Of a stretch of DNA of 64,000 bases, positions 3,001 to 63,059 are shown in pieces; position 1 is the stretch's first letter, and each line of letters opens with the position of its first letter. Under the pieces are notes generated by a model that saw only the letters and a list, made by a program, of their open reading frames with translations, ran no database searches and had not been told where the DNA came from. Origin of the DNA: an uncultured Verrucomicrobiae bacterium (lineage in GTDB: Bacteria > Verrucomicrobiota > Verrucomicrobiia > Palsa-1439); the NCBI GenBank assembly GCA_963713705.1, contig CAVQMY010000027.1:89669-153668 (forward strand), given 5' to 3'. A program made the position numbers and the translations under genes.

Positions 3001-3992
3001 AGATCCCGCTGCAACGACTGGTCTGTGTGTCGGGCGTGAGCGGCAGCGGAAAAAGCACGCTCGTTCGGAACGTGTTGCATGAGAACCTGAAAGTTCTTGT
3101 GGGGAAATCGTATGCAAAGGGACGTCCGCACAACCAATTGAGAGGCTGCGAGCAGATTCACGGCGTGGAACACGTCGCGCGCGTCCTGGAAGTCGATCAG
3201 ACGCCCATCGGCAAAACGCCGCGCTCGTGTCCGGCGACGTACGTGGGATTCTGGGATGAGATCCGCAAGCTGTTCGCCAACACGACGGAAGCCAAGATGC
3301 GCGGATACCTGCCGCCCCGGTTTTCCTTCAACGTCGCCAGCGGTCGCTGCCCGGAATGCGAAGGCCAGGGGCGAAAAAAGATCGAGATGAGCTTTTTGCC
3401 GGACGTGTTCGTCACCTGCGACGCATGTCGCGGGAAGCGGTTCACGCCGGAGACGCTGGATGTCCGATACAAAGACAAATCCATCGGTGACGTGTTGGCG
3501 ATGAGCGTTGATGAAGCCGTGGAGTTCTTCGCGGCGCACCGTCAAATCCATCACGGCTTGAAGCTGTTGCAGGAGGTCGGCCTCGGTTACCTCACGCTCG
3601 GCCAGCAAAGTCCGACGCTCAGCGGCGGCGAAGCCCAACGCATCAAGCTCGTCACGGAATTGGCGAAAGCGAAAGGTGAGGAATCGGATGTCGCGAGACT
3701 GAAATCGGGTGCGTTGTACGTCCTCGACGAACCGACCATCGGCCTGCACATGGCGGATGTGGAGAAGTTGATTCGCGTGCTCCATCGCCTCGTCGATGCC
3801 GGCAACACCGTCATCATCATCGAGCACAACCTCGACATCATCGCCGAAGCCGACTGGATCATCGATCTCGGCCCCGAAGGCGGCGATGCCGGCGGCCACA
3901 TCGTCGCCCAAGGCACCCCGGAACAGGTCATCAAGGAAAAGTCACATACGGCGAAGTTTTTGGGTGAGTTTCTGAAGGAGCGGCGGCGGTGA
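1..3992 (+). CDS. uvrA: Excinuclease ABC subunit A, tandem double-length form (5' end outside window)
   Basis: Frame 3 is open from base 3 (GEVQRVNLTTALGTSLVNTLYVLDEPSIGLHPRD). It has three GxSGSGKST Walker A motifs, three further LSGGEAQR signatures and CxxC zinc fingers, i.e. four ABC domains. Confidence 0.95.
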   Translation, partial: GEVQRVNLTTALGTSLVNTLYVLDEPSIGLHPRDINRLIGILHRLRDAGNTLLVVEHDPDVIRAADRILDLGPGPGERGGEIVFFGKQQQLLGAKGSLTAQYLRGEKSVMGTAPRIVPPGKATSLKILGAREHNLKNIDVEIPLNRLVCVTGVSGSGKSTLIQDVLYNALCKLKHKPDEPAGRHRAIVGHEKIEDVVMVNQSPIGRTTRSNPASYVGAFDTIRKLFAAESLAKERSYTAGTFSFNSGEGRCPTCGGNGFEHVEMQFLSDVYLRCPDCDGKRYRPEVLEVRIKGKSIADVLDMTANEACEFFATHPEVLRALEPLRAVGLGYMKLGQPVPTLSGGEAQRLKLAGHLVQTTNKRTLFLFDEPTTGLHFDDIATLLHAFSQLIERGHSIVVIEHNLDVIRAADWIIDLGPEGGDAGGEIMCVGTPADVAKCERGHTGAALRGPSALLKVAESPAPLYATGPNHSIRIHNAREHNLKSIDVNVPRDKFTVITGISGSGKSTLAFDILFAEGQRRYLESLNAYARQFVQPASRPDVDAIFGIPPTVAIEQRTSRGGRKSTVATVTEIYHFLRLLFVKLGTQYCPDCNIPIQPQTREVILAKLMKDYRGQRIELLAPLIVARKGYYTDLAAWALRKGFALLRVDGEFLPTANWPRLDRFKEHNIELPVGGREVSPKHENLLGELLDAALEYGKGLVIVSSPRKVGETFFSTRRACPKCSRSFEELDPRLFSFNSKHGWCPKCFGTGLQFLGFNEEHTGEEIWWNEWFEGQERPCPACHGQRLRPEALAVKFQDMNITKMTAWSVTDAERHFRDSTLRGRDADIARDIVAELQSRLRFLDKVGLSYLSLDRAAPTLSGGEAQRIRLASQLGSNLRGVCYILDEPTIGLHPRDNLMLLDTLHELEAKGNTVVVVEHDEDTIRRAEHIIDLGPGAGSNGGWLVAEGTIKDIVRCEESLTGKLLREPLRHPLHKTRRKTASNSVEIVGATLHNLKNVTVKIPLQRLVCVSGVSGSGKSTLVRNVLHENLKVLVGKSYAKGRPHNQLRGCEQIHGVEHVARVLEVDQTPIGKTPRSCPATYVGFWDEIRKLFANTTEAKMRGYLPPRFSFNVASGRCPECEGQGRKKIEMSFLPDVFVTCDACRGKRFTPETLDVRYKDKSIGDVLAMSVDEAVEFFAAHRQIHHGLKLLQEVGLGYLTLGQQSPTLSGGEAQRIKLVTELAKAKGEESDVARLKSGALYVLDEPTIGLHMADVEKLIRVLHRLVDAGNTVIIIEHNLDIIAEADWIIDLGPEGGDAGGHIVAQGTPEQVIKEKSHTAKFLGEFLKERRR

Positions 3993-4025
3993 GCGAGGGC
4001 GACCTGAGCAAAAAGAGAAGCAGTC

Positions 4026-4796
4026 TTAGGGGAGCACCCCAATGGACCTTGATACTTTCAGCTCTGTCTCGATTAAGTGTTCAGCAATCTCTTTTACGAT
4101 GTACAAGTCCTCGGAGAGGCGCCGTAGGTCGGAGACGTTGTCTGGGTCAATGATCGGATCGGCATAAGCATGAGCGATCGCGCAGCGGCCGGACTCATAG
4201 AGGTATTTCGGGACGTCAAGCCCGTCGGCGCCTAGGGCACGGAGCCGTCTCACCGCCATCTCGTCCTTGAGTTTCGGCAGCGTTGCCCTGATTCCCTCGA
4301 TAATGGGGTTCTGACGCTGATCGTTAATGGTTTCGAACTTGTCCTTCCAGAAGATGTTCAAGATCTTGAAGTAGCTGAGGAACCCAAATGGTGTGCTGTT
4401 GACCGTTCGTGCCTCTCGGAACAGGGCCAGTGCAAGGCGAGCCTTCTCATCCGGTTCGAGTTGTCGGTTGAAGGGAAAAGCGATCGAGGATCCCACAACT
4501 CGCGATTCCCTCGGAACTGGCACAGGAACCGGATTGCCCGACCAACCGTAACGATTCTCCATTGGCTGATCGTCGCACCAAGAAAGGACGCTCAAGAATT
4601 GGTTGATGAGGGTAAGGGCATCGACATTGGAAATGCCTCGCAGGTTGACGTGGACCGACTGTTCGGTCTCGCGTGTCGCAGGCTTCAAAACAAGGTTGTG
4701 CCCCCCGAATTCAACAGTTGTTTCTTCTGTCGGCCAGACCGCGCTGCCTTTGACACCGACATGCAGCCATTGATCCATGACCCTAACGTTTGACAT
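4026..4796 (-). CDS. MauJ-like / HEPN-motif hypothetical protein
   Basis: 256-aa ORF convergent with uvrA. It has ALALFREA...FLSYFKILN and C-terminal YLYESGRCAIAH (Rx4H). The family call is from recalled similarity; the start could be 4778. Confidence 0.55.
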   Translation of the reverse strand: MSNVRVMDQWLHVGVKGSAVWPTEETTVEFGGHNLVLKPATRETEQSVHVNLRGISNVDALTLINQFLSVLSWCDDQPMENRYGWSGNPVPVPVPRESRVVGSSIAFPFNRQLEPDEKARLALALFREARTVNSTPFGFLSYFKILNIFWKDKFETINDQRQNPIIEGIRATLPKLKDEMAVRRLRALGADGLDVPKYLYESGRCAIAHAYADPIIDPDNVSDLRRLSEDLYIVKEIAEHLIETELKVSRSIGVLP

Positions 4797-5029: not shown

Positions 5030-6295
5030 GTGCGTTTTTTGCGCGCTATCTGTGCCTGCGCTCCCGCACCCATGCGAGGAGCAAACGACGTGAAAAAGAC
5101 GGAATGCCACGTGCGCACCGTGAATACACGATCACCTCGGGCAGCCTGCCCGCGTTCAATCGCCGCCGTCAGTCTCTCGGTTTTCCTGACAGCCGTGTGG
5201 TTGTCGATGCTCCCAATCACCCCGGCGCAAACGGGGACTGACATTAGCAGCGCAGCGGGAACAGTTGTGCCCAATCAGCCAGTTGCGTCACCTGCCACTT
5301 CACAAACCGGAACCAATGGGATTACCCTTGATCGCTTGGAGCAACAAGAGGCGGCTTACTCCATGTCAGTGGATCAACTCAAGAAAAGGGCTGAGGCTGG
5401 CGATGCAGTAGCGCAGTTCACATTGGGCGGACGCTATCACAAAGGCGATGGCGTCCCGCAAGATTCCGCCGAAGCTATGAAGTGGTCTCGCAAAGCTGCT
5501 GAGCAGGGAGATGCTTACGGGCAGTTCGCGTTAGGCGCGTGCTACTATGATGGCGTAGGGGTGCCCCAAGACTACACCGAGGCCGTGAAGTGGTTCCGCA
5601 AGTCCGCCGAGCAGGGATACGCTCGTGCGCAGGCCCTATTGGGCGCTTCCTACTCCAAGGGTCTCGGCGTGTCGCAAAATGACGCTGAGGCCGTGAAGTG
5701 GTATCGGAAGGCCGCCGAGCAGGGATATATGAACGCACAAGGTATATTAGGCGCTTGCTACAGACATGGGCTGGGCGTATCGAAAAATTACGTTGAGGCC
5801 GCGAAGTGGTATCGCAAGGCCGCCGAGCAGGGGGATGCGAATGCACAGGCAGCAATGGGAGATGTTTACCGCTTTGGCTACGGTGTGTCACGCGACTACG
5901 CTGAAGCTGTGGGCTGGTATCGCAAGGCGGCGGATCAAGGTGACGCATCAGGCCAATGTGGTCTGGGGACGTGTTACTTTGCGGGCGACGGCGTGATTCA
6001 AGACGAGAGGGAGGCTGTCAAATGGTTCAGCAAAGCGGCTGAGCAGGGCCATAGTGAAGCGCAATGGAAACTAGGGGGCTGTTACGAGCTTGGCACTGGA
6101 GTCCCGAAGGATTACGTTCGGGCGTACAAGTGGCTGAATCTTGCGGCAGTCCAAGGCAACGAACACTTCACCAAGGATCGTGATTCCATTGTGGGTCAGA
6201 TGACGCCCGAACAAATCTCGGAAGGCCAGCGGCTATCTTCTCAGTTTGTCGCGCAACACGAGGGAGCTAAAGCGCCTAGCCAACCCGACAAATGA
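5030..6295 (+). CDS. Sel1-like repeat protein (7 repeats), probably exported; start uncertain
   Basis: Seven 36-aa AQxxLGxxYxxGxGVxxDxxEAxKWxxKAAEQG repeats follow a hydrophobic segment. Confidence 0.9.
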   Translation: MRFLRAICACAPAPMRGANDVKKTECHVRTVNTRSPRAACPRSIAAVSLSVFLTAVWLSMLPITPAQTGTDISSAAGTVVPNQPVASPATSQTGTNGITLDRLEQQEAAYSMSVDQLKKRAEAGDAVAQFTLGGRYHKGDGVPQDSAEAMKWSRKAAEQGDAYGQFALGACYYDGVGVPQDYTEAVKWFRKSAEQGYARAQALLGASYSKGLGVSQNDAEAVKWYRKAAEQGYMNAQGILGACYRHGLGVSKNYVEAAKWYRKAAEQGDANAQAAMGDVYRFGYGVSRDYAEAVGWYRKAADQGDASGQCGLGTCYFAGDGVIQDEREAVKWFSKAAEQGHSEAQWKLGGCYELGTGVPKDYVRAYKWLNLAAVQGNEHFTKDRDSIVGQMTPEQISEGQRLSSQFVAQHEGAKAPSQPDK

Positions 6296-12701: not shown

Positions 12702-12735
12702 TTGCGCCGCATGATACATTGTAGTACAATGTATC
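12702..12735 (+). promoter_or_regulatory. padR promoter (TTGCGC-17-TACAAT) overlapped by the perfect palindrome GATACATTGTA-G-TACAATGTATC, a putative PadR operator
   Basis: -35-like hexamer at 12702-12707, -10-like at 12725-12730 and palindrome at 12713-12735, all just upstream of the ATG at 12740. Confidence 0.65.
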
Positions 12736-12790
12736 TTCTATGAAGCGGGACGAGGTTGCGAAGAACCTGGCCACGGGGACGTATGATCTA

Positions 12791-13883
12791 TTGAGTCCTG
12801 CATAATATAGTTAGTATTTCACCACAGTTCCGCCTGCTTCCAGAAGGCGGCGATGAGCCCGGGGCGACGGCGCATCCGGCGCAGCGCCCGGGTGGCCATG
12901 AGGCTCAGTTCCCAGCCGTGTTGGGCGCAGAAGTTCGCCAATTCGTGCTGCTTGAGGTGGCCCCAGATGTACTCGGCGGGGTTCAGTTCCGGCGCGTAGG
13001 CGGGTAAGTATTCCAAGTGGACGCGCTGGCCCAGCGTGCCGATGAAGTCACGGACCGCCCGACTGCGGTGGATGCCGGCACCGTCCCAGACAATCAACAG
13101 TCGCCCGGGCAGATGGCGCAGCAGATGCCGCAGGAACTCGATGACTTGGGGGCTCTTGATGGCGCCGTCGAAGAGCTGAAAGTAGAAGTTCCACAGGGTC
13201 AGCCCGGCCACGACCGAGAACTTCTTCCAGTTGAAGTGGTGCTGCAGGACGGGCGTGCAGCCGCGGGGTGCCCAGGTGCGGACGCGGTGCGGCTGTTGGC
13301 TCAACCCGCTCTCGTCGATGAAAACGATCAGCCGGCCTTCGCGGAGCGCTTTTTTTTAATATCCGGCCAGCGCTGGCGCTTCCAGCAGCGGATCGCCGGC
13401 TCGTTGCGTTCCAAGGCGCGACCGACGGGTCGCTGGCAACTCCAGCCCAGCTTCTGGAGCAGGCGATAAACGTGATCGGCATGAAACCGCACCCCGGTTT
13501 GCCGTTCGATGAGGTCGGCGATGCGCGGGGCCGTCCACAACGGCGTGTCGTAGCCGAGGGCCTGCGGTCCCTGACGGAGTGCCAGTTCGATCTGGTGGAG
13601 TTGGGCGGAGCCGAGTCGGGGCTTGCGACCGGCGCGTCCGGCCTTCTTCAGGCCGTCGGTCCCCTGCGCCTGCCAGACGGCGTACCAGCGCCCACTGGAT
13701 TGGGCGCTGACACCCAAGCGTCGGGCGACGGCGGCCTTGCCGAGACCACGAGCGAAAAGTTTGGCCGCACGGAAGCGGCGCTGTTGGAGTTGGTCAAAGT
13801 CGCGCTTCAATCCTTTGAGGTGTCCCATACTACCTTCGACACCGCAACCCCCAATAGCGTTCACTATATTATACAGGACTCAA
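12791..13883 (-). mobile_element. IS630-family insertion sequence
   Basis: 21-bp terminal inverted repeats TTGAGTCCTG(C/T)ATAATATAGT with one mismatch. TA duplication at 12789-12790 and 13884-13885. Confidence 0.95.
12819..13828 (-). CDS. IS630 transposase (orfA HTH + orfB DDE joined by -1 frameshift at an A8 run near 13350)
   Basis: orfA ends WPDIKKKRSAKAG*. The -1 frame gives KALREGRLIVFIDESG...IVWDGAGIH...LPAYAPELNPAEYIW. Confidence 0.92.
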
Positions 13884-14080
13884 TAATTGTGCTCGACGTG
13901 TTGCGGGCCGGGCCGAACTACGGCTATGGCATCCGGAAACGGATCTTCGAGCGATCGAAGGGCACATTGAACTGGCTGGATGGCACGGTTTATCCCGTTC
14001 TTCGCCATCTGGAGAAGCAGGGCCTCGTGACAAGCCGTTGGAAAGGCCCAAAGGAGGGTCGACAGCGCTGTTATTACCGC

Positions 14081-15172
14081 CTCACGCCGCGCGGTCAACG
14101 GGTTTGGCAACAACAGCGCCGTCAGTGGACCGCCTTCACCCGCGCGATCAACGCCCTGCTCACTCCCTGAGACACGACCGCGACACAGTGGATAGTCGAC
14201 GAGCCGCGCTGCCCGACATCTAACGACCCCAGACGGGAGCTAATTCTGCAACAGATCGCGCGCGGGACGTGAAACCCGCTCACGTAAATCAATGTTTACC
14301 TCACTCCACGCGGCTTGCTGGAACGATAATACATTGCAGTGCAATGTATCAGACATGCGCCGACGGGAGCCACATGCGAGCAATACGGAGAGGAGTCGCG
14401 GCACACAAAAGGGGGATACATTGTAGTGCAATGTATCAGGCAAACATGGACAACAGTTCACACCAAGACACTCATCGGGAAACATCTGGGTAGCGGTTCT
14501 TGCAGTGGTCACCCTCTGTCTACCCGAGAGCTTGCGGGGCCGGTCAAAGCTTGCCACATTCCACGTGGCCACTGCTACGCCTCACGCCGCGCGGTCAACG
14601 AATTTGGCAACAGCAGCGCCGTCAGTGGACCGCCTTCACCCGCGCGATCAACGCCCTGCTCGCTCCGTAGCGCGCGACCGCGAGCCGGTCACGCGGTCGA
14701 TACGCAGCGCCGCCCGGCTCCTAGCGACCGCCGATGGGAGGTAATGCCGCAACAGATCGTACGTGCGACGTGAAACCCGCTCACGTAAATCAATGTTCAC
14801 CTCACTCCGCGCGGCTTGCTGGAGCGATGATACATTGCAGTGCAATGTATCAGATGCACATCAACGGAAGCCGGGTGCGAGCAATCCGGAGAGGAGTCGC
14901 GGCTCACAACGGAGTATACATTGTAGTGCAATGTATCAGGCAAACACACACAGCAGGTCACACCAAGAAGCTCATCGGGAAATGTCGGGGTAGCGGTTCT
15001 TGCAGTTGTCGCCCTCAGTCCGCCCGAGAGCTTGGGGGCCGGTCGATATTTGCCACGTCCCATGTGGCTGGCAGTACCGGCTTACGCCGCGTGGTCAACG
15101 GGTTTGGCAACAGCAGCGCCGTCAGTGGACCGCCTTCACCCGCGCGATCAACGCCCTGCTAACGAATCGCTG
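14081..15172 (+). repeat. Exact 500-bp-period tandem array: three copies of the padR 3' 80 bp separated by two diverged ~420-bp units
   Basis: Copies start at 14081, 14581 and 15081, and the last 47 bp of each are identical. The units carry ATACATTG(C/T)AGTGCAATGTAT palindromes at 14329, 14416, 14830 and 14916. Confidence 0.92.
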
Positions 15173-15310
15173 AGGATTTTGCCAGCTGGAGCGCCGGTCT
15201 GCTTCGAACTCCAAGCCTGCGCTCCAGCCTATAAATTCACGTTCACTTTTGTCAGATGACCTGGCGATTTGCTTCGTCGACAGATTCCTAATTCGCCGTA
15301 CAATTGAGGC

Positions 15311-16766
15311 ATGTTTCTGGAGCATCCATCGCTTCCGCCATTCGAGCCAATTCTCAAGCCGATTGCCCGTGCCGTTTTGAGGAAGGGAGTAGACGCGCTT
15401 TCGAGCAGGAACTACGGGTTCGACAATATTGGACACGATCGCAAAGCATTTGCGACTTTTATAAAGGGCTGTCACAAGGGCTATGATCTGGCACAGCGCA
15501 CGGTTGCTCAAACGGTCTTTCAGTTGCTTAACGATACGAAGCACCTCGAAACCACCTTGAAGCAGCTGCGGACTGGGAGACACGATCGGATAGCTGAAAA
15601 AAGAACAATTGCATGTATTCGAGTCTTAGAAAACCGGGTGCTAGTCTTACGCCGCCTTCAAGACTGCATTGTCAACATAGTTCTTGGTGGTAGAACTTGG
15701 CTTAATAAGCGGTTTGTCCTGGAACAAAGGATCAAACCCGTAGACCTCATTGGAACAAAGCTCGCCTTGGAGTACGCAAGTCGGGAGAACGAGACAAACC
15801 GTCTTAGATTTTCAGCAATAGCGGACCTTACTACTTATGTGCAAGTGGGCGATATCATACAGGTCGACTTTACACAACCGCCGGCTCGTTGGTCGATTAT
15901 TGAGCTAAAAATCCGGAAGCGTGAATTCGCTTTTGACTGAAATCTTGAACAAAGAAGAGAATTCTAGCCTAGAAAGGCTGCAGACTCTCAGTGCGAACGT
16001 TAGCCCGACAGCACCGCGACAAATTCGTCGGATGCAAATTCAGCGTTCCCGGATTCGTGAGATTGTTAACGCATACGAAGGCAAACCAGCAAAAGACCTA
16101 CTGACCGGTCTGGATTACCTGCAACACGAAACCGAGTTAGAAACGCAGAATTACGCGAGAACAATTGCTGGTGTGATGGAGCGAGCGCGCCGCGACGGAG
16201 CGGCAGCAAGCGTCGTTGACGAATGTTTGGTGGTCCAAGCCTTCTCAGGTTGTTCGCTTGGGACTGCAGTTTTTTATGCAAAATTCGGCGCGTTTGGGGC
16301 AGTGTCCGGCAAGATGCCTGATCCAAACTCCTGTGGCGAACAGGAGCTGGAGACGGTGATGGGAACGCATATCGTTGATCTCACCAGCAGCAATCTTTTG
16401 GCAATGGTTCAGCAATCAATTTTCACCTTCGAATTGAGTTTGGAAGACATGATGGATTTGCTCTTCCGCAGAGTAATCGTGCTTCACTTAAATGCTGATC
16501 GCTTAATCGATCTGGCAGCAAAAAAGGGAATGTCGCTCCGAAAGCTGAGCGCAAAGGAAGAGGCACAGCTCAGCCAAAGAATCGGCTTAACGGCCATCGT
16601 CCCTGGCATACCAGGTCTGCATCATAAGTACCGGAATTATGAGCAAGACATTGCTGGAGGCAGTTTTGCTCTCGTTCTCAATGAACTCATGAGGCCAGTA
16701 GAACTTCTGCGCTCCATGCAGACAACTGCTGAGGAACTAGAATCGAAAATGTCTCGCTCCAAATAA
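15311..16766 (+). CDS. Low-GC hypothetical protein with a PD-(D/E)xK-like motif, one frameshift at the A5 run near 15907
   Basis: Deleting one A joins ORFs 15311-15940 and 15921-16766 as ...DLTTYVQVGDIIQVD...IIELKSGSVNSLL... Confidence 0.6.
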
Positions 16767-16810
16767 CTATTCAATCGCACGGCTTACGCTTGTTCTCCAC
16801 GACCCGCAAT

Positions 16811-26000: not shown

Positions 26001-26062
26001 AATTCGGAGATGGTGCGGCGCGCTCGTCCCGAGCTCCGCCTCGGCAACACAAGTGGATTGTG

Positions 26063-26153
26063 CTAGTGTGCTGTCCCTAACGCTTCGTTACAATGAATCG
26101 CTTCATTTTGACCAGATGGACATTGGAAAGGCATTTCAGTGACACCACACTAG
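26063..26153 (-). mobile_element. 91-bp CTAG-bounded MITE, copy 1 (inverted relative to copies 2 and 3)
   Basis: Exact reverse complement of 41361-41451 and 61901-61991. TIR CTAGTGTG(G/C)TGTC. Confidence 0.9.
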
Positions 26154-41206: not shown

Positions 41207-41360
41207 GCCGGATGCATTCAAGGGGGGAGAATCGATGACGGGGTTGGGGGTGGGCGGATGCGGGTTGGACCAGGGTTAGGCTCGGTTTCGAGCAGGGTCA
41301 GCTAGGGTAGACTAGGGTTGCTTGGGTTACCCAGGGTTGGCTGGGTTGGCTGGGGGTTGC

Positions 41361-41451
41361 CTAGTGTGGTGTCACTGAAATGCCTTTCCAATGTCCATCT
41401 GGTCAAAATGAAGCGATTCATTGTAACGAAGCGTTAGGGACAGCACACTAG
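41361..41451 (+). mobile_element. 91-bp CTAG-bounded MITE, copy 2
   Basis: Identical to 61901-61991. Confidence 0.9.
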
Positions 41452-61248: not shown

Positions 61249-63059
61249 TCACTGGCTAATGTGCAGTCGCGCGAGTGCGCTTCTCGCTTCAGTAAGATCA
61301 GGGTTGCTCCGCAAGGCCCGCTCATAATGTTGGATGGCTTCTTGGACCCTGCCGGCGCGTTCCAAGGCGACCGCCAGATTGTAGTGGGCCTTGACGTAGT
61401 CAGGGTTGAGACGCAGCGCCTGCTCGTATTGTTCGATTGCCTCTGGCACCCGGCCCGTCTGCTCAAGGGCAATGCCCAAATTAAGGTGCGCCTTGGGGTA
61501 GTCGGGGTAGAGACGCAGCGCTTGCTCGTACTGTTGGATCGCCTCGGAAACTTTGCCTTCCTGAAACAGCGTAACGCCCAGAATGTGGTGCGCCTCGGCG
61601 TGGTACTCAACACTCGCCAGGAGGTTGAACACCACCGAGAACCCCAGCAGCAGGCACCAAACCGAGCGCGCCGCACGCCTCCTGGTCGGACGGTTTACCA
61701 GGGCATGTTCCAGCCCGAGAATACCAATCACGGCCAGCAGCAACAGCGCGGGCAGGAATTCTACTTCATAACGTACAGAGGTATAGTAGAATAGGCCAAC
61801 GGTCAGGACACTGGTCCAGAACAGCAGTGCCACCGTCGCCACAAACCACCGCAAGAGTGAGCCCGCCGCGCCGATTGGCTCCGCCATGTCAGTGGCGCGG
61901 CTAGTGTGGTGTCACTGAAATGCCTTTCCAATGTCCATCTGGTCAAAATGAAGCGATTCATTGTAACGAAGCGTTAGGGACAGCACACTAGCGCCAGCCA
62001 CGCAAGGGGAACGTTCGCCAGGATACCGAATGGCGCTTCCACATTGCCGTGGCCCGGCGGCAAGGGTGGCACCGCCATCTTCTGCACGTAAGGAAATTGA
62101 CGACCCCAGCCTACTGACTTCAGGAAATACAGGCGGAGGTTGAACCAAAGATAGTGCAGATTGAAGCCGTGCACAGACGCCGGGTGATTGTCGCCGGCCA
62201 ACAGGTAACGCACGCCAAATTCGAACGGGCTTCCGAATCGCAGCGCATTGTAAAGCATCAACCCCAGTCCGATCAGCATGATCGGAACGGTCGCCGCCAT
62301 CAGTCGCGCACAAATCCGCTGCTGCCCACCACGCCACGCTTGAATCACCGGCACCACCAGGATGACCGCGCCGAACAGCAACGAGGGCCGCGCTCCCACT
62401 GCCAGCCCGTAAGACACACTCGCCGCCGTTAGCCACCGACAGCTCCGCTCCGGCTCGTGCAACGCACACCAGATCGCCGCCAGCGCCAGCATGGTCAGCA
62501 TATACCCGCAACAGATCGGCACTTGGTAAACGTCGGCCTGCGACAATAGTACCGGCGCACCGGTCGCCAACCCGAGCGCCAGCGCACACGCCGCGATGAC
62601 GACGACGCTTACTTCAGCAAAGTAGCGCCGCCATAATGCGAACAGCAGGCCCACGCTGGCCAGAAATCCGACCGCACAAAAAATCGCCGCGGCCTGACGA
62701 TGAAACAAGTAGTGGCCGGTCATCGCGGCGAACGGCCAGAACAGGATCAAGGCGGGCGTGACCCCGTGGTACAGGTAAAGCCGCCCTTTGTAGTAGCTCA
62801 GGTCGTGCAGCCGGTACGGCATGAGCCGATAGGGTGCATTCGCCGTCGCATCGTAGGGATCGGCAAGTTGTGCGAGCCCGGGCGGAACCGCCTTTTGTAA
62901 ACTGAGATGGCCGGCTCCAAAACCGCGCACTAGTAAATTGTAATAAGTGTCCGCCGCACTCGGACTCAGCAGTTCCAACAAGCCCGATTGGGCTATGTAC
63001 GCGTAAACCCCGATCACCAGAACGCACACCGCAGCGAGAAATACCCACGCCCTCTTCAT
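61249..63059 (-). pseudogene. Polytopic membrane protein with C-terminal TPRs (possible GT-C glycosyltransferase), split by a MITE
   Basis: The N-terminal ORF stops at a TAA inside the MITE. The C-terminal ORF has three TPRs (AHxNLGxAL...EAIxQYEQALRL.PD). Confidence 0.75.
61901..61991 (+). mobile_element. 91-bp CTAG-bounded MITE, copy 3 (intragenic)
   Basis: Identical to copy 2; inserted at CTAG within the codons GCG CTA GCC. Confidence 0.92.

Follow-up and report, generated by a model that had tools for sequence, protein, structure and literature searches.

The interrupted padR locus and its palindromes

The window analysed here, meaning the whole stretch of 64,000 nucleotides from contig CAVQMY010000027.1 of an uncultured Verrucomicrobiae bacterium, contains a gene for a small regulator of the PadR family (padR) together with five copies of a 21-bp palindrome. 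One copy overlies the candidate core promoter of padR, and four follow the gene as two spaced pairs. The gene runs from an ATG at 12740 to a stop at 14170 and is split after codon 17 by an IS630-family insertion sequence (IS), a disruption missed by an earlier reading made from the letters alone (the sequence-only reading). That reading also missed a 500-bp tandem repeat (2.2 copies, 14075-15160, 84% matches) that carries the four downstream palindromes. Comparison with related genomes makes it likely that the palindrome (21/23 bp) is the cognate operator of an autorepressing, 111-residue, LmrR-like PadR of subfamily 2 (PadR-2), the downstream copies being auxiliary operators. Autoregulated PadR operators are textbook elements, and the element belongs to this known kind; its arrangement is unusual in being bracketed, paralog-specific and dispersed, and no description of a bracketed or dispersed arrangement of PadR operators was found in the literature searched. 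The features of the locus are as follows (sites are listed without strand).

12702..12730, plus strand: candidate padR core promoter, TTGCGC-17 bp-TACAAT, read from the sequence, with the -10 hexamer inside the right half of the operator
12713..12735: predicted promoter operator O_P, GATACATTGTAGTACAATGTATC (21-bp core 12714-12734), ending 5 bp 5' of the padR ATG
12740..12790, plus strand: padR 5' fragment, codons 1-17, with the ATG at 12740, ending in the TA target site
12791..13883, minus strand: IS630-family element of 1,093 bp with 23-bp terminal inverted repeats and a TA duplication (12789-12790 / 13884-13885)
13886..14170, plus strand: padR 3' fragment, codons 18-111 and stop, holding the recognition helix (N46-W-L-D-G-T-V-Y53) and the C-terminal helix
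14075-14574, 14575-15074 and 15075-15172, plus strand: tandem repeat unit 1, unit 2 and a partial third unit
14329..14349: predicted downstream operator, site 1 of unit 1, ATACATTGCAGTGCAATGTAT, with an ortholog at the same offset (+443/444) in the related loci L010, L011 and L014
14416..14436: predicted downstream operator, site 2 of unit 1, ATACATTGTAGTGCAATGTAT, with an ortholog at +528..531 in L010, L011 and L014
14437..14577, plus strand: segment D, conserved and non-coding, ~140 nt directly 3' of site 2; second copy at 14937-15077
14830..14850: predicted downstream operator, site 1 of unit 2, by sequence match
14916..14936: predicted downstream operator, site 2 of unit 2, by sequence match

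A search of the whole window for ATACATTGYAGTRCAATGTAT returns positions 12714, 14329, 14416, 14830 and 14916, and 100 shuffles gave no match. The central Y/R states are T-A at 12714, C-G at 14329 and 14830, and T-G at 14416 and 14916; the two sites of a pair are 87 bp apart in unit 1 and 86 bp apart in unit 2. These positions, states and spacings agree in full with the sequence-only reading. Its description of the promoter copy is likewise accurate: TTGCGC (12702-12707) is followed, after a 17-bp spacer, by TACAAT (12725-12730), a hexamer present only in this copy, the downstream copies having TGCAAT. The full palindrome is longer than the 21-bp core and reaches 23 bp (G-ATAC...GTAT-C). The argument that the central changes are compensatory is weak. 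There are three variants (T-A, T-G and C-G), each one transition apart, and no strand consistently carries a wobble pair. Since the four downstream copies are two sites within a tandem repeat, only three site variants are independent. The apparent five-copy array consists of a single promoter operator and of two sites that the repeat has multiplied; it is not a designed array. For annotation the lesson is that what looks like a five-copy array with compensatory changes was a promoter operator and repeat-multiplied sites beside an IS-killed gene.

The insert in padR has all the features of the IS630 family, with a DDE_3 domain and N-terminal helix-turn-helix domains (HTH_33 and HTH_32), inverted repeats and a TA duplication. 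Its transposase lies in two frames on the minus strand (13864..13328 and 13304..12819). The genome holds 10 copies of the element that are 99.6-100% identical, which indicates that the insertion into padR is recent. The gene is inactivated by this insertion in the present genome. Joining 12790 to 13886 gives a 111-residue PadR (PF03551, E = 4.9e-22, 78 bits against a cut-off of 27, residues 19-92), for which the nearest solved structures are those of LmrR (3f8b/3f8c, aligned over residues 5-106). The length is that of PadR subfamily 2, whose members have ~100-115 residues in one domain with a C-terminal dimerisation helix. Both signature tyrosines are present, Y31 (GYGI) and Y53 (VYPVL), and their 22-residue spacing equals that of Y20/Y42 in Bacillus subtilis PadR (BsPadR; PMC5728393, PMC6457526). 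The protein is related to the padR_acidobact paralog family TIGR03433 but falls outside it, its 88.3 bits being below the curated cut-off (101.8). A promoter-like match, TTCACT-16-AATAAT, lies at the right end of the IS630 element (window 13860-13887); it faces out of the IS toward the 3' fragment of padR and could drive expression of a PadR without its first 17 residues.

The candidate promoter is kept in padR orthologs as TTGNNN-17/18-TAC(A/C)AT, with the -10 hexamer inside the right arm of the palindrome. A second conserved candidate, TTGAYN-17/18-(C/T)ATGAT, abuts the left arm; the -35 of this candidate (TTGATC-18-CATGAT) is degraded to CTCATC in the window. Because the palindrome overlaps two plausible core promoters, promoter occlusion is the natural reading of how padR would be autorepressed. 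A PadR dimer would bind the copy that lies across the core promoter of padR and ends 5 bp from the ATG, and so repress its own gene.

Site position and recognition-helix residues in related genomes

The comparison drew on 13 related padR loci from metagenome-assembled genomes of other Verrucomicrobiia and, more widely, on 45 genomes of the family. The 21-bp palindrome is found upstream of padR at all 13 loci. In the 12 full-length loci its start lies 26 bp 5' of the ATG, at -77/-78 relative to where the protein match begins; L020, a partial locus, has another offset. At most of the 13, one to four additional copies follow downstream. When the search was widened within the family, 23 distinct padR lineages were found in which a palindrome lies 61-64 nt before the GTYDL codon. 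As in other PadR-2 systems, a palindrome is found in the gene's own promoter, and it holds a fixed distance in >23 loci. More distant paralogs of padR in the same genome, on contigs C19, C36, C45 and C2, also have an upstream palindrome in the same layout, and the bracketed order of site, padR and site is general in this PadR family.

The type of palindrome varies together with the dipeptide that follows the conserved tryptophan at the start of the recognition helix.

W-L-D: ATACATTG (CATTG type)
W-Q-D: ATACATGG (CATGG type), at eight loci; L010 and L056 have mixed half-sites
W-H-Q: AT(G/A)CCTAG
W-N-E: ATACCTCG
W-R-E: ATACCTTCC
W-Q-E and W-R-D: AT(A/G)CATTTC

When the proteins are placed in register by their tyrosines, the variable dipeptide aligns with residues 37-38 of BsPadR. 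In the structure of BsPadR with DNA, His38 contacts T8/G9 of the C-N-T-G half-site (PMC5728393), and the base that switches here, in C-A-T-(T/G), is the equivalent of the contacted base. The fixed position before every related padR, taken with the co-variation of site and helix, argues strongly that the palindrome is a cognate, autorepressing operator, and the proposal of the sequence-only reading that PadR binds the palindrome and represses its own gene is well supported by this comparison. Occurrence of the protein also follows occurrence of the sites: a PadR at least 70% identical is encoded in 15 of the 23 family genomes with sites, against 1 of the 22 without (Fisher p = 2e-5). The assembly containing the window is 77% complete and yielded no further padR of the CATTG type. 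Operator recognition by PadR-2 proteins is poorly characterised, and the natural specificity table available here matches more than eight operator types to a dipeptide, so that a rule of one residue for one base becomes directly testable.

The sequence-only reading offered a different function for the palindrome, that of a hairpin in RNA or single-stranded DNA. The 9-bp stem with its AGU loop would serve as a terminator, stabiliser or attenuator, and the T-A, C-G and T-G states would reflect selection for pairing. When 73 sites of the family are oriented to read AGT, the central pentamer is TAGTG in 43, TAGTA in 16, CAGTG in 12 and CAGTA in 2. The closing pair is accordingly T-G in 43, T-A in 16, C-G in 12 and C-A in 2, as pairing on the AGT strand predicts. 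However, the other eight stem positions point in the opposite direction, with 13 A.C mismatches on the AGT strand and 5 G.U. Orthologous promoter sites, moreover, differ in whether AGT stands on the sense or the antisense strand; such flips of the central base between AGT and ACT are expected if the site is double-stranded and its reader a symmetric dimer. No conserved U-tract or terminator tail follows the palindrome. As an intrinsic terminator the element is also unconvincing in composition, since the stem is A+T-rich and the one T-run, on the minus strand, appears accidental and is not kept in unit 2. A scan of window 12-16 kb against Rfam returned nothing. Transcription probably starts at or downstream of the promoter copy, the type of site follows residues of the protein, and the three variants in the window differ from one another by single transitions. 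Based on these observations, the hairpin is a most improbable explanation of the palindrome. The bias among pentamers fits descent from a TAGTG ancestor with transitions more frequent than transversions, or else an unexplained preference on the part of the protein. Within CATGG-type modules, the downstream site is the exact reverse complement of the promoter site.

The downstream repeat and the dispersed copies

Each unit of the tandem repeat opens with the last ~95 bp of padR, and the padR tail is present three times, at 14078, 14578 and 15078. The two units are 82.7% identical and are equally distant from the single unit of L011 or L014. As they are as far from each other as from the unit of a sister species, either the duplication is old or one copy was imported. 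Both sites are nonetheless identical between the units at 21/21 positions (42/42 in total), for which the chance at 82% identity is 0.82^42, or ~2e-4. Across species, variation in the sites is restricted to positions 7/15, 9, 11, 13 and 19. This pattern of conservation indicates that the downstream sites are under constraint and are kept in sister species. L010, L011 and L014 each have one unit in the same place, with the same site offsets, followed by a second padR tail. L009 is without the unit and L014 has an extra 86-bp duplication of a site, and the number of downstream sites in sister species ranges from 0 to 4. The downstream sites might act as the decoy, titration or looping array proposed in the sequence-only reading, but their number varies between species and increases through tandem duplication, so that a precisely tuned set of decoys is unlikely.

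Segment D is also found 3' of the downstream operator in CATGG-type padR modules of three other genomes. It has no 3-base periodicity and differs between species by 1-nt indels, which marks it as non-coding, and no fold supported by covariation was found on either strand. The small open reading frame (ORF) of 56-57 aa made up of the padR tail was considered as a mini-PadR or anti-repressor and was rejected, as the N-terminal halves of the two copies are in different frames. In L011 an in-frame stop precedes YRLTP, with no start after it, so the tails are not translated as a mini-protein. Long ORFs that run through the palindromes on either strand were likewise rejected on account of 1-nt indels between species and the lack of a 3-base periodicity. 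The middle of the unit showed no sign of being a decayed 5' part of padR (local alignment z <= 1.3 against shuffles). Upstream and downstream sites were also compared for inverted repeats extending past the palindrome, and none were found. On the minus strand the downstream sites do contain TACAAT, but no -35 hexamer at a workable spacing accompanies it.

The layout of the units invites an explanation in terms of mobility, in which they would be non-autonomous integrative mini-elements that enter the 3' end of padR as an attachment site (att), re-supply its tail and leave a direct repeat of 95 bp each, with the operators as cargo. The order of tail, ~400-bp insert and tail has sharp boundaries shared among L010, L011, L014 and the window, and is absent in L009. 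The padR tails form the direct repeats that such elements should leave, and the cargo slot between padR and glnS is filled differently in each species. Nevertheless, no integrase or recombinase is present in or near the array (window 12-17 kb). In the related genomes searched, the unit occurs at the padR locus only, once per genome and only in the CATTG-type lineage, and so is not a multicopy mobile element. The second padR tail of L014 and L010 continues into ~34 bp, a site and a D-like stretch, which is the exact follow-on of a CATGG-type padR and fits duplication or replacement of a whole module. A plausible intermediate is seen at L019 (4345-4651), where an intact padR is followed in tandem by a full-length padR pseudogene, the two differing in specificity type. 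Integrative mini-elements thus appear very unlikely, and the best interpretation of the repeated padR tails is that they are remnants left when a module was duplicated or replaced. L016 has, 1.3 kb upstream of padR, an N-terminal padR fragment (2643-2786) that carries an operator of its own.

Outside the window, eight further copies or close variants of the palindrome are present on five other contigs (C7, C8, C35, C40 and C46), at six other loci in the same genome. They include variants with a change of one base per arm, CATGG for CATTG. None adjoins a padR, most are beside IS copies, and a search beside orphan sites found no padR fragments. The palindrome occurs in 23 of the 45 family genomes, with 2-15 sites per related genome, and the whole superfamily of palindromes amounts to ~19 sites in the 4.4 Mb of the present genome, where ~1 is expected. 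The sequence-only reading had held that scatter across the genome as an unrelated family of repetitive extragenic palindromic (REP) sequences would speak against its proposal. The scatter is real, at the six other loci and across the 23 genomes, but the sites are few and are tied to PadR lineages, and hence do not form an unrelated or classical REP family.

The settings of these orphan copies are diverse. At L044 (G030:C95) a ~250-bp repeat occurs three times (2377-2431, 3976-4030 and 5926-5980), in three consecutive intergenic regions between unrelated genes, and each copy carries two different PadR-type palindromes 34 bp apart; this genome is without a close CATGG-type PadR. Pairs of CATGG-type palindromes bracket a non-padR ORF of 114 aa, of unknown family, at L043 (4337-4728) and a non-padR ORF of 147 aa at L041 (2500-3104). 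Short repeats of the form gcttcgctaaagc(c/t)atggcggacaag lie near several orphan operator sites (C7:21250-21330 and C46:10920-10960), and the same type is found upstream of the padR paralog on C36 (46116-46166).

These settings bring to mind REP sequences and their REP-associated tyrosine transposases (RAYTs), which together form REPtrons. In an element of this kind the palindromes would have spread by copying, the PadR paralog would be their cognate binder, and the sites would be address tags rather than, or besides, operators. In common with RAYT genes, padR is flanked on both sides by its own sites. Identical 21-mers are found in unrelated contexts and across genera. Some copies lie on dispersed repeats of ~250 bp and in arrays shared with palindromes of other types, spaced 34 or 73 bp apart (L044, L037, C7, C46 and C35). 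Brackets around small genes other than padR, the persistence of sites in genomes without a close PadR, and a distribution of pentamers that fits descent from one TAGTG ancestor would also be accommodated. On the other hand, PadR has no nuclease or transposase domain, and in particular is not the HUH (Y1) transposase that defines a RAYT. The sites number ~19 per genome where REP sequences number hundreds, the 500-bp unit is confined to a single locus and vertically inherited, and ordinary autoregulation explains the fixed position at the promoter. A REPtron-like origin and function of the sites is therefore considered unlikely.

The downstream sites are instead best explained as auxiliary operators that would keep PadR at the locus that encodes it and delimit the module on its 3' side. 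The gene is bracketed, with two more putative operators in this lineage, 86-87 bp apart, placed 3' of its stop and followed by the ~140-nt segment D. These sites may act together with the promoter site, ~0.5 kb away, in cooperative repression, or may form a roadblock that separates padR from the variable cargo slot, and titration of PadR would be a side effect at most. The distance from promoter operator to downstream operator is 382-470 bp in most modules, and ~520 and ~605 bp here when the IS is discounted. The four sites in the window reflect tandem duplication of the 500-bp segment that starts inside the 3' end of padR. They are probably unoccupied at present because padR was recently inactivated by the IS630-family insertion, unless a paralog cross-binds.

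Several observations sit uneasily with a set of operators serving one repressor. PadR-2 proteins are known as dimers and are not known to bridge two sites. The spacing of 86-87 bp is not an integral number of helical turns, and a symmetric dimer does not explain the asymmetry of the central pentamer. Most copies in the family are orphans away from padR, and some are carried on short dispersed repeats or bracket other small genes. Perfect sites are found in genomes without a close PadR, with no match at E <= 1e-15 in G032 and best matches of 61% in G030 and 37% in G013. Finally, the cognate padR is broken in the genome at hand, and the function of its sites therefore cannot be current there.

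A more far-reaching interpretation is that the small PadR paralogs of soil and peat Verrucomicrobiia constitute an undescribed 'bracket' system. Each gene would lie between copies of its own 23-bp site, and the sites may have spread to intergenic regions, short repeats and other small genes, often as arrays mixed among paralogs. Such a system might be a combinatorial code of multiple PadR proteins that gates accessory or hotspot genes, or a set of REPtron-like, self-propagating address tags, with L/Q48 reprogramming one base of the half-site. This is speculative, and we give it only a modest chance of being correct. The bracketed layout and the orphan arrays nevertheless suggest either an unusual network of multiple repressors in uncultured Verrucomicrobiia or a new way in which binding sites spread.

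Downstream of the repeat, window 15200-16800 has a GC content of 0.49, compared with 0.60 for the window, and contains two co-oriented ORFs (15311-15940 and 15921-16766) with no Pfam or NCBIfam match. In related genomes the cargo of the slot between padR and glnS includes a methyltransferase, a transposase, and genes that are PIN-like or zeta-toxin-like by sequence, and the next gene there often points back at padR. The slot looks like an insertion hotspot. A further repeat of ~91 bp has >60 nearly identical copies in the genome (type copy C8:79757-79847); it resembles a miniature inverted-repeat transposable element and is often found beside an IS5-like element. Its copies in the window are at the following positions.

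26061-26153 (C27:115729)
41358-41451 (C27:131026)
61901-61992 (C27:151569)

Comparison with known systems

The pairing of a REP with its RAYT gene resembles the present arrangement in that a gene is flanked by its cognate palindromes, the families are lineage-specific, and dispersed intergenic copies are sometimes clustered with other types. The flanked gene here, however, encodes a DNA-binding repressor rather than an HUH transposase, and the copies number in the tens, not the hundreds. The lac operators O1 and O2, which are 401 bp apart, and gal OE and OI similarly have a second operator a few hundred bp downstream of the promoter operator. Looping depends on a repressor that bridges its sites, as a tetramer or as a dimer of dimers, and no such repressor is known among PadR-2 proteins.

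Closer parallels are found among PadR proteins. The B. subtilis PadR-padC operator (PMC5728393) is likewise a palindrome recognised symmetrically through a C-N-T-G half-site. The T/G base that follows CAT here corresponds to G9 there, which is contacted by His38, the residue aligned with the variable dipeptide. However, BsPadR belongs to subfamily 1 and has two domains. Its half-sites span 18 bp (CATGTA-N6-TACATG), compared with 15 bp here (CATKG-N5-CMATG), and the site described here differs further in its odd length and asymmetric central pentamer.

The nearest known systems are LmrR of Lactococcus lactis (PDB 3f8b/3f8c) and LftR of Listeria monocytogenes (PMC6457526). Like the joined padR product, each is a winged helix of ~110 residues with a C-terminal helix. 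Both signature tyrosines are shared, as is a (partly) palindromic operator in the gene's own promoter that is read by a dimer, a mode of reading that is predicted for the protein encoded here. In contrast to these two systems, no transporter or detoxification gene is adjacent here. The Verrucomicrobiia modules are set apart by their extra putative operators downstream, by many paralogs per genome with operator variants of their own, and by identical orphan operators elsewhere.

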